Assembly: GCA_947625495.1 (NCBI GenBank)
Contig: CANQOQ010000002.1
Span: forward strand, 122,306-186,305
Direction of reading: 5' to 3'
DNA: 64,000 nt
Source of the DNA: Candidatus Gastranaerophilales bacterium
GTDB lineage: Bacteria > Cyanobacteriota > Vampirovibrionia > Gastranaerophilales > Gastranaerophilaceae
The notes under the pieces were generated by a model, which made no database searches, was not told where the DNA came from, and was given only the letters and a program-made list of their open reading frames with translations. Shown here one piece after another: positions 16,095 through 19,093 of this stretch; position 1 is the first letter of the stretch; every line of letters starts with the position of its first letter. Made by a program: the position numbers and the translations under genes.

Positions 16095-16670
16095 TTATTT
16101 TATAAAAGATTTTCTTTTTTTGTATAGAATAAAGAAAAACAGAATAATAACAACGGTTACGGCAATAATAACAAGTTCGATATATTGTTTAATGGCTTCG
16201 CCAAACAGCATTAAAACTATACTTACAATAAAGAACCTTAAGCCTCTTCCGAAAAAGCTTGCGAGCATAAATTTAAAGAAATTCATACTCAAAATACCGC
16301 TTGCAATTGTGAAAACTTTATAAGGAATCGGCGTAAATGCCGAAAAGAAAACGGCAAGAGTACCGTATTTATTGTATAAAACTTCAACAGCTTCAAATTT
16401 TTCTTTTCCGCCTTTTCTAAAGAACCAGTTAAAAGCGGGTCTGCCGCCATAGTACCCGATTGAGTATCCTATAACACCTCCGAATGCCGAGGCAATTGTA
16501 CAAATTAAAGCATAAAACAATGCTTTTTTAGGATTAGCTAAATCCATTGCTATTAAAAGAAAATCAGGCGGCGGAACAAGAAAAAAACTTTCTATAAACG
16601 AGTTTAGGGCTAAACCTTGAACACCCATTGCCTGAAAAAAGTCATTCATTTTTATAAATATTTCGTGCAT
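16095..16670 (-). CDS. DedA/YqaA (VTT/SNARE-associated) family membrane protein
   Basis: ESFFLVPPPDFLLI plus multi-TM profile; 191 aa. Confidence 0.75.
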   Translation of the reverse strand: MHEIFIKMNDFFQAMGVQGLALNSFIESFFLVPPPDFLLIAMDLANPKKALFYALICTIASAFGGVIGYSIGYYGGRPAFNWFFRKGGKEKFEAVEVLYNKYGTLAVFFSAFTPIPYKVFTIASGILSMNFFKFMLASFFGRGLRFFIVSIVLMLFGEAIKQYIELVIIAVTVVIILFFFILYKKRKSFIK

Positions 16671-16700
16671 TTTATCCTCTCGATTTTGATTTTAACATAA

Positions 16701-16731
16701 AAAAAGGTTAACAATTTATGTTAACCTTTTT
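16701..16731. terminator. bidirectional terminator-like hairpin ending the dnaK-downstream island
   Basis: aaaaaggttaac / gttaaccttttt perfect 12-bp inverted repeat with a 7-nt loop. Confidence 0.55.
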
Positions 16732-16735
16732 TTAA

Positions 16736-17248
16736 AACTTGAGCTCTGGTGCAGTGGCACCTTAAAAGTTTGGTTTAACTTATTTTGAACCGGCTCTGCC
16801 GGTGCCCTGCGAAATTCCGCTGTCTTGGATTTTGCTTCATTTCTGCCCTGTCATTCGCCGTGCTTCGCACCTGCTCATTTCGGGCATTCATTACTTCGAG
16901 CTTCGCTCTACGCAAAATCCGCTGTCTTGAAATTCCTTTTCGCTCAAGCTTGTCACTCCTACGGTTTTGCCTGTCGTCGTTTAAGCTTTCGCATAACGGA
17001 TTTCATCCGTACGGAATTTCGCTTCTTGGAATTGCTGTTCGCACAACCCCTGCAACCTCGCTTTAAAAACCTTTGGTTTTTCCGCTCGGTCGGGTTGTTG
17101 CTCCCTCGGGCTCGCTCGCTTTGCTCGGCTTTGCCCTGCGCAATTCCGCTGTCTTGAAATTCCTTTTCGCTCAAGCTTGTCACTCCTAAGGCTTTGCCTG
17201 TCGTCGTTTCAGCTTTCGCATAACGGATTTCATCCGTACGGAATTTCG
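16736..17248 (-). ncRNA. candidate structured non-coding RNA or 3' UTR element downstream of dnaK (unknown family)
   Basis: G+C jumps to about 50% (32/60 counted for 16801-16860). The plus strand is about two-thirds pyrimidine. Many short GNRA/GAA-loop hairpins, internal repeats, no credible ORF. Bounded by the dnaK stop codon and a terminator. Confidence 0.3.
16911..17023. repeat. direct repeat copy A (113 nt)
   Basis: Matches 17139-17250 with about five differences. Contains the acggat-ttc-atccgt hairpin and terminal inverted 11-mers. Confidence 0.9.

Positions 17249-17250
<2 letters not shown>
17139..17250. repeat. direct repeat copy B (112 nt), abutting the dnaK stop codon
   Basis: Matches 16911-17023. 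A partial third copy of its 5' end (gccctgcg[ac]aattccgctgtcttg) lies at 16804-16829. Confidence 0.9.

Positions 17251-19093
<1,843 letters not shown>

Follow-up and report, generated by a model that had tools for sequence, protein, structure and literature searches.

We analysed a 64,000-nt stretch of the genome of a Candidatus Gastranaerophilales bacterium (assembly GCA_947625495.1, contig CANQOQ010000002.1, positions 122,306 to 186,305 of the forward strand; hereafter the window). In this window, a G+C-rich island of 515 nt (16736-17250) lies directly behind the chaperone gene dnaK. We observed that the island consists wholly of five consecutive structured units, arranged head to tail in the order D-C-D-B-A without filler, between the dnaK stop codon and a terminator-like hairpin. 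The array probably belongs to a non-autonomous family of structured repeats similar to BOX and repetitive extragenic palindromic (REP) elements, here co-transcribed as the 3' untranslated region (3' UTR) of dnaK. Units of the family were dispersed over this genome and its relatives, kept their fold by compensatory changes, started in exact register with stop codons or terminator T-runs, and turned over at orthologous sites. The literature on Melainabacteria repeats yielded nothing relevant and no paper on this repeat family, which is apparently a large and so far undescribed family of the Gastranaerophilaceae.

Anatomy and fold of the array

The dnaK coding sequence (CDS; 17249..19090, minus strand, from the list of open reading frames, ORFs) ends in a TAG at 17249-17251, on whose G (base 17249) the repeat array begins. 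G+C content was ~50% over the island and 0.47-0.58 in 100-nt windows across 16750-17250, compared to ~0.24-0.39 in the flanks and 0.313 genome-wide. Pyrimidines made up 0.64 of the plus strand of the island; the dnaK-sense strand is purine-rich. We found two direct repeats of 112 nt each (16915-17026 and 17142-17253, 96% identity), a piece of 21-26 nt present three times (at 16812, 16914 and 17141), and complementary 11-nt ends GCGAAATTCCG / CGGAATTTCGC. The terminator-like hairpin (about 16698-16734, minus strand) has a perfect 16-bp stem, detected by inverted repeat search and folding, with an A-run before it and a T-run after it. From these runs, it could act in both directions, and it is likely the 3' end of the dnaK transcript. 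The sister genome G054 retains the same terminator behind its dnaK array.

These observations agree with an earlier note on this DNA, which had described a G+C-rich, pyrimidine-skewed island, two direct repeats of ~113 nt, a thrice-occurring piece, a one-base overlap with the dnaK TAG and a strong hairpin before dedA. The note had also proposed that complementary unit ends close a domain; the ends do pair, the domain is ~100 nt long, and covariation supports the pairing. What it had taken for a possible pair of insertions is instead the five-unit array.

Unit D1 (type D; 17150..17249, minus strand) was delimited by segmentation and by a match to R1, a covariance model of the type-D unit (17152-17249, 114 bits). 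It comprises ~98 nt plus a 2-nt spacer and reads, from its 5' end, GCG, the arm GAAAUUCC, CGUA, a P2 hairpin, a P3 hairpin, the arm GGAAUUUC and AAGA-CA. Unit C (type C, 127 nt; 17023..17149, minus strand, segmentation) has the arms GGAAUUGC/GCAAUUCC and a long inner stem GCAACAACCC/GGGGUUGUGC enclosing an AAAAACC-AAA-GGUUUUU hairpin; its homologues lie behind groEL and at other loci. The second type-D copy, unit D2 (16923..17022, minus strand; R1 match 16925-17022, 113.6 bits), is 96% identical to D1. Unit B (type B, 102 nt; 16821..16922, minus strand) was placed by segmentation and by a weak R1 match (16823-16922); it has the arms GGAUUUUGC/GCAAAAUCC and the mini-hairpins GAGC-GAA-GCUC and GUGC-GAA-GCAC. 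The terminal A module (16736..16820, minus strand) is truncated on its 3' side and runs from a 5' arm through CGCAGG to a long, AT-richer hairpin (GGCACC...GGUGCC). A modules also end arrays at C2:107792-108071 and on contigs C14 and C19, and occur twice behind rpsN on C46. Full-length versions in genome G008 show the A module to be the P2 domain of a larger unit.

We extracted 51 self-closed units. Full units follow one plan: GCG, a 7-9-nt arm, CG-Y-A, P2, P3, the complementary arm and AAGA with 1-2 further nt. P2 is a short hairpin; P3 is longer and often branched, with GAA or GAAA loops. Unit length ranged from 85 to 140 nt, and arrays held 1-5 units of several types. In the window array, the arms of units D, C and B were perfectly complementary within each unit and not to the arms of the neighbours. 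Because arms pair within their own unit, the unit and not the junction is the folded domain, and the shared plan implies that each unit folds independently into a closed three-stem domain. A junction hairpin between neighbours, or a core of the tyrosine-recombinase type (8-bp arms, 8-nt spacer), was rejected as the main structure, since in mixed arrays the arms match their own unit.

We observed strong folding of the dnaK-sense strand over a 566-nt stretch (z = -8.3 vs shuffles). The complementary strand gave z = -7.2, and the value with DNA parameters was z = -6.8. In an alignment of 17 type-D units with a 24-pair consensus (A1), 96.5% of cells were standard pairs, compared to 81.8% in shuffles; none of 500 shuffles reached the observed pairing, 16 of the 24 pairs had double changes, and slid controls gave 12-49%. 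A second alignment of 48 distinct units (A2), which included other genera of the family and was aligned to the covariance model and hence biased towards it, was 96.2% paired vs 72.5% in shuffles. In A2, 21 of the 24 pairs had changed on both sides (250 cells; slid controls 10-49%). The three-stem fold is kept by compensatory changes, and the structure is under selection. The arms covary within the unit, flanked by GCG, CG-Y-A and AAGA motifs that do not vary. G-U accounted for only ~2% of paired cells in A1 and A2, so that compensation is almost purely Watson-Crick. With so few G-U pairs and equal folding of both strands, the fold could act in RNA, in single-stranded DNA or in both.

Dispersal, array starts and turnover

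By BLAST, pieces of the island had 27 matches in this genome, spread over at least 12 contigs. Iterative BLAST extended this to ~22 loci totalling 3.5 kb, two of them at contig ends. The genome is a metagenome-assembled genome (MAG) of 51 contigs, 97% complete with a contamination estimate of 2.7%; because it is fragmented and the repeats sit at contig ends, copy numbers are lower bounds. BLAST detected the family in 20 of 24 sampled congeners and in 0 of 16 genomes that belong to other genera within the order. Across the order, R1, which is more sensitive than BLAST for this family, detected it in 101 of 201 genomes and 25 of 49 genera, nearly all of them members of the taxonomic family to which this genome belongs; the counts per genome take in at most 20 scored candidates. 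A permissive Rfam 15 scan of the island and 28 other family loci gave no family match and picked up only two genuine tRNAs adjoining units and, at E = 0.05, the terminator hairpin. A tRNA- or tmRNA-like element was rejected, as ARAGORN found no gene in 22 extended islands, with a relaxed threshold included. An AT-richer, divergent unit with the arms GAAAUUUCU/AGAAAUUUC forms four tandem copies with a period of 103 nt next to pth (C4:86100-86550).

We used the purine-rich strand to orient the loci of this genome, together with 68 fetched loci, and then sorted the arrays by the position of their first unit. Nineteen array starts (~16 unique) fell on the G of a TAG that closes a same-sense ORF of at least 130 codons, in the register TA|GCG. 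A further seven started directly after a hairpin and T-run; the remaining starts lay inside other repeats or after a small stem-loop, X (see below). The purine-rich strand of every stop-codon array ran in the same sense as the upstream ORF, and arrays usually ended in a 3'-truncated unit. Within this genome, arrays at stop codons follow dnaK, groEL (two copies), nusG (before rplK), rplL and rny; the TAG of rpsN (before rpsH) is the site of an A-type module, and a 5'-truncated unit follows the TGA of rpmJ (before rpsM). Genome-wide, TAA closes 71% of genes, TAG 17% and TGA 12%. The probability that at least 6 of 22 arrays start exactly on a stop was ~2e-8, given ~1,800 stops and ~225 kb of non-coding sequence. 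The junction is at the stop codon on either of two readings: the first G may replace the third base of TAA, or the element (CG...) may insert after AG. Judged by eye, similarity of dnaK and groEL ends to the unit junction was weak and inconsistent. The two full-length groEL genes (C14:17672-19321 and C19:7132-8781) are 89% identical at their 3' ends and have a different array behind each; they may be paralogues or reflect strain heterogeneity in the MAG.

We compared the dnaK stop region in 30 genomes of the genus. Ten sites were filled (nine TAG|CG..., one TAA|CGG) and 20 were empty (14 TAA, 6 TAG). The first units at the filled sites differed and included D, C, B, a 5'-truncated D and two decayed remnants. 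On the dnaK tree, filled sites fell in at least four separate well-supported clades, and the empty sites bearing TAG were concentrated in a clade that also has filled members. This scatter fits several gains and losses at dnaK. The sister species (G054, 97% identity) carries C-D-C-D-A at this site compared to D-C-D-B-A here, which suggests quick gain, loss or exchange of units with the TA|G register kept. At the groEL stop, 16 of 29-30 loci were filled, all TAG|CG..., and 13-14 were empty (3 TAG, 10-11 TAA). Presence of the element was strongly associated with TAG (Fisher p = 4e-8, shared ancestry ignored).

The empty site of another Candidatus Gastranaerophilales MAG (L028), whose DnaK is 96% identical to the one encoded in the window, reads TAA TAA, followed by its own terminator and directly by the DedA/VTT gene. 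In the window, the corresponding gene for a DedA/VTT-domain membrane protein (16095..16670, minus strand; Pfam PF09335, E = 3.6e-14) lies outside the element. A Pfam search of the ORFs inside the island gave zero matches; a translated dnaK extension or small proteins were rejected, as stops follow in the dnaK frame and the internal ORFs lack a Pfam match. One congener (locus L169, genome G017) has a ~120-nt tandem repeat (GTCATTGTTTTTAGGAATCGCGAAAACACAGGACGAGAAATAGATTTCTTAACG...) just downstream of dnaK that is unrelated to the units.

Units were also nested in the loops of other hairpins, namely those of a repeat H and the AT-rich loop of the A module in G008. H is a separate repeat of ~130 nt (gtccgaRYaaaattttacgataagcc ... 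ttgcgacactagattaaat) without an Rfam match, often found just upstream of genes and in their sense. Some copies have a 104-nt unit at one fixed point of the hairpin loop and others lack it; empty copies lie at C15:19188-19319, C3:121906-122033, C2:17111-17238 and C1:126044-126177, and filled copies at C1:109100-109330, C1:210596-210823, C2:40138-40361, C2:55637-55878 and C6:39191-39496. Just past the right end of the window (C2:188376-188490), a type-B unit with in-frame stops interrupts a polymorphic-toxin paralogue in its conserved N-terminal module (WDESEHPRD...GKFT). Three toxin paralogues are intact (C2:181850, 183760 and 187110), and genome G007 (L139) has a homologous toxin gene with a unit in the corresponding position. 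Comparison of filled with empty sites for H and for the toxin paralogue gave at most 1-2 ambiguous duplicated bases.

Long duplications occurred only at copies linked to tRNA genes. Of 42 tRNA genes, 12 were followed by a purine-rich, G+C-rich element of ~95-190 nt and then by a repeat of the last 12-21 nt of the tRNA, placing this direct repeat 85-206 nt downstream of the gene. The repeat mostly started at T-loop position 57/58, and at the clearest three loci, tRNA-Gly (C2:52247-52318), tRNA-Asp (C10:45946-46023) and tRNA-Lys (C18:8555-8630), it continued through the downstream terminator. Further such loci include C21:15706-15794, C18:1189-1272, C16:31619-31702, C1:10235-10310, C4:89269-89342, C17:3366-3441 and C27:208-283. 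The elements belong to several sequence families, some with array-type units, and often consist of X and a unit-like body ending ...CAAGAC. This duplication is the family's only clear insertion signature, and the dnaK array does not have it.

The stem-loop X (GAUGAGAAC-hairpin-GUUCGA, with covarying stems) precedes units behind tRNAs and terminators (C21:6530-6900, C17:3460-3790, C4:89370-89410). On C21 and C17 the whole block of terminator or tRNA end, spacer, X and unit is tandemly duplicated. A hammerhead-like reading of X (GAUGAGAAC...GUUCGA) was rejected, as the core motifs misfit and Rfam gave no match.

Known repeat systems and rival explanations

Judged by description, BOX of Streptococcus pneumoniae is the closest analogue of the unit family. 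BOX elements (boxA-boxB(n)-boxC) are modular and tightly folded with paired ends, lie near the 3' ends of genes; 36 pneumococcal CDSs take their stop codon from a BOX element (Croucher et al. 2011, PMC3049150). Similar to BOX, the units are small, non-coding, modular interspersed repeats with a variable number of modules, a tight fold and paired ends, have no transposase of their own and are confined to one bacterial lineage. They also overlap CDS 3' ends and supply the stop codon (~16 unique TAG cases, compared to the 36 of BOX). In contrast, each unit is self-closed and chained head to tail, whereas BOX is one A...C frame with internal B copies. The units further differ in their strong purine-strand bias, in a G+C content far above the genome average, and in having arrays anchored behind tRNA genes and at terminator T-runs as well. 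BOX belongs to a different phylum and has a different composition; the likeness is one of description, and homology to boxA, boxB or boxC is unlikely.

The units share with REP elements, bacterial interspersed mosaic elements (BIMEs) and REPINs their nature as G+C-rich extragenic hairpins between stop codon and terminator or between cistrons. Similar to REP elements and BIMEs, they are clustered in mosaics, have a GTAG-like motif next to a stem and are probably co-transcribed. REP elements stabilise upstream mRNA. They are single palindromes of 20-40 nt, unlike the 85-140-nt units with three stems, and their GTAG or GGAG heads the palindrome, whereas the CG-Y-A-G motif lies inside the closing stem of the unit. 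All units of an array have the same orientation, in contrast to the alternately inverted pairs of BIMEs. This genome also lacks a REP-associated tyrosine transposase (RAYT), and Y1 genes were uncorrelated with element load.

MITEs (miniature inverted-repeat transposable elements) such as Correia and ERIC resemble the units in length (~100-150 nt), pairing inverted ends and dispersed, non-autonomous occurrence, and are often co-transcribed with their neighbours. Every unit has terminal inverted repeats in the form of its 7-9-nt complementary arms. Unlike MITEs, arrays show no target-site duplication, the units are not AT-rich, and the terminal arms vary between unit types yet remain complementary. 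Mycobacterial interspersed repetitive units (MIRUs) are reportedly direct tandem units of 46-101 bp inside operons, oriented with the genes and overlapping flanking stops, and are said to vary in copy number between strains. The units are likewise tandem, oriented with genes, overlapping with stop codons and strain-variable in number. MIRUs differ in having short in-frame ORFs thought to couple translation; here, the frame after the stop has further stops, and the fold defines the units. Bacterial class C group II introns, which reportedly insert immediately behind intrinsic terminators and point the same way as the terminated transcript, share the preference for terminator-adjacent sites. A group IIC intron was rejected: there were no ribozyme domains (no Rfam group II match), no intron boundaries and no reverse transcriptase domain (RVT_1), and the units are only ~100 nt. 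An integron attC site was rejected as well, since the units end in GCG.../...AAGA and not RYYYAAC...GTTRRRY and no ORFs lie between them (intI was not searched).

Taken together, we consider an array of a BOX/REP-like, non-autonomous repeat family the probable explanation. New arrays would be seeded at the ends of expression units, either at the TA|GCG of a stop or directly after a T-run. As the first base of the array sits at TA|GCG, a TAA-type stop comes to read TAG. Arrays would then grow, shrink and swap units by recombination between the conserved unit junctions. The position between stop codon and terminator leads us to expect transcription with dnaK, most likely as a very stable 3' UTR of 515 nt. 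By analogy with REP elements, the array may block 3'-to-5' exonucleases. The G-rich, C-poor sense orientation may be tolerated in that it creates no Rho-loading sites; selection against antisense insertions in operons, which would be C-rich and Rho-loading, may account for the sense bias, as may strand-specific insertion. Candidate means of spread are copy-choice or microhomology events, or a structure-specific single-strand recombinase.

Several observations weigh against this explanation. A Y1 transposase (PF01797, RAYT/IS200 type) was not found in this 97%-complete genome, and Y1 genes occurred in 14 of 52 genomes of the genus, which were not the element-rich ones. Reverse transcriptase (RT; RVT_1) was not found here or in the most element-rich congeners and was uncorrelated with element numbers. 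The 26 arrays that start at stop codons or T-runs had no target duplication, and because of this we infer mobility solely from presence/absence and dispersal. The exact register is explained neither by classical transposition nor by simple tolerance of insertions. Enrichment at chaperone and ribosomal-protein genes could reflect host selection and not selfish spread, and the fold may have its role in RNA, in single-stranded DNA or in both strands. A mobilising gene could also be missing from the 51-contig assembly.

Mobilisation by a RAYT/IS200 system was rejected on the absence of Y1 here and its lack of correlation with element load. No parent insertion sequence (IS) with matching ends was found in a search that covered the Y1 and RT families and was not a full IS census. 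Retroelement mobilisation was likewise rejected, as RVT_1 is absent here and the RT of G054 has no units nearby. That RT (~287 aa; L209, 495-2298) lies directly 3' of a DnaB-C-like ATPase gene, and the two look like a defence-type pair. Roughly ten congeners have similar RTs of ~295-300 aa.

The earlier note had offered a structured 3' UTR or non-coding RNA linked to dnaK (stabiliser, small RNA source or thermosensor) or MITE/REP-like insertions, and had recognised no Rfam family. The Rfam scan that it proposed agreed with the last point. The proposed BLASTN search of genome and relatives returned many dispersed copies, and the proposed covariation analysis returned structure-preserving double changes (21 of 24 pairs in A2). 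Insertions of a dispersed, non-autonomous hairpin repeat are upheld in outline by these data, without the target duplication or the RAYT/Y1 transposase in the host genome that such elements would suggest. The note had stated that many unrelated sites with target-site duplications would mean a mobile element with no dnaK link; the sites were found (~22 loci, 25 genera), the duplications were not. A dnaK-specific role found no support, given these loci and genera and the 20 of 30 empty congeners. A dedicated cis-regulatory RNA of dnaK, acting as thermosensor, small RNA precursor or dnaK-specific stabiliser, is scarcely credible: its position directly after dnaK, sense orientation, very stable fold and recurrence at dnaK stops in several clades would suit such a role, but L028, with its 96% identical DnaK, is among the congeners without an array, units follow another order in the sister species, the same unit types recur at more than 20 unrelated loci, and Rfam gave no match. 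Dispersal and the empty orthologous sites largely refute it.

A generic 3'-UTR module and a single-stranded DNA recombination system are serious alternatives to the BOX/REP-like repeat family, or complements of it, although we hold each to be unlikely on its own. The first would be a host-selected RNA module of 3' UTRs and intercistronic regions that stabilises or processes the message or sequesters an RNA-binding protein, with dispersal secondary. It agrees with the bias towards abundant housekeeping messages (dnaK, groEL, nusG-rplK, rplL, rpsN-rpsH, rpmJ-rpsM, rny), with the purine-rich strand in ORF sense at all stop-codon arrays, with compensatory conservation across 25 genera and with groEL units in 16 of 29 congeners. 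Yet in many lineages the dnaK arrays were lost or decayed without replacement, a given gene does not keep its unit type or number, and a structure under selection as RNA would not usually have so few G-U pairs. Some units are also found downstream of terminators, where transcription should be low, or within other repeats, after tRNA genes and in the coding region of a toxin. The almost purely Watson-Crick compensation speaks for a structure-specific single-strand DNA element, in which the three-stem fold is a recombinase substrate comparable to integron attC/IntI or to REP/IS200 hairpins and Y1. This doubtful possibility would account for arms of variable sequence and constant structure between fixed GCG, CG-Y-A and AAGA motifs and for strand-specific insertion, and orientation was strictly strand-specific. 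Units are nested in the loops of other hairpins, and GCGAAGC and GNA-type mini-hairpins, which are very stable in DNA, are abundant. Against it, Y1 is absent here and shows no correlation across the genus, the attC core motifs and cassette genes are absent, the searches for Y1 and RT identified no candidate enzyme, and arrays show neither cleavage sites nor target duplications.

None of these readings explains the nucleotide-exact placement. A process templated by RNA 3' ends would, but it lacks an enzyme. Unit RNA would here be attached to other RNAs at their 3' ends and then be copied back into chromosomal DNA, which we judge very improbable. The acceptors, on this long shot, would be messages cleaved at the A site (after the UA of the stop), U-run-terminated transcripts and pre-tRNAs. 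It is equally hard to credit that the junctions (TA|G, the last T of terminators, T-loop 57/58) mark RNA 3' ends and not DNA sites, with units spreading via an RNA intermediate. Junctions exactly at TA|G and at T-run ends, hosts that are the most abundant RNAs and arrays that usually close with a 3'-truncated unit are consistent with such a process. So are the tRNA-end copies at 12 of 42 tRNA genes, most of which start at T-loop 57/58, where reverse transcriptases stop on modified tRNA. However, no RT is present in this genome or in the most element-rich congeners, the only nearby RT type looks defence-like and has no units beside it, stop-codon arrays have no duplication of the gene end, and several undocumented steps would be required.

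Implications for the Gastranaerophilaceae

Our data remove a false lead, in that the island is no dnaK thermosensor or small RNA. They point instead to a repeat family of non-photosynthetic gut relatives of cyanobacteria, with a structure conserved over at least 25 genera. The repeats sit, exact to a single nucleotide, where the translation and transcription units of the most highly expressed genes end, and they convert stop codons to TAG. Many copies sit at contig ends, and the units therefore break MAG assemblies; the arrays are also strain-variable markers. If the RNA-intermediate reading were true, the family would be a bacterial analogue of chimera formation by short and long interspersed nuclear elements (SINE/LINE), through an as yet unrecognised enzyme of these genomes. 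Should the precision stem from mechanism and not from selection, the family would be a tractable case for how BOX and REP elements find gene ends. For the organisms themselves, the arrays may affect the mRNA stability of chaperone and ribosomal-protein genes.

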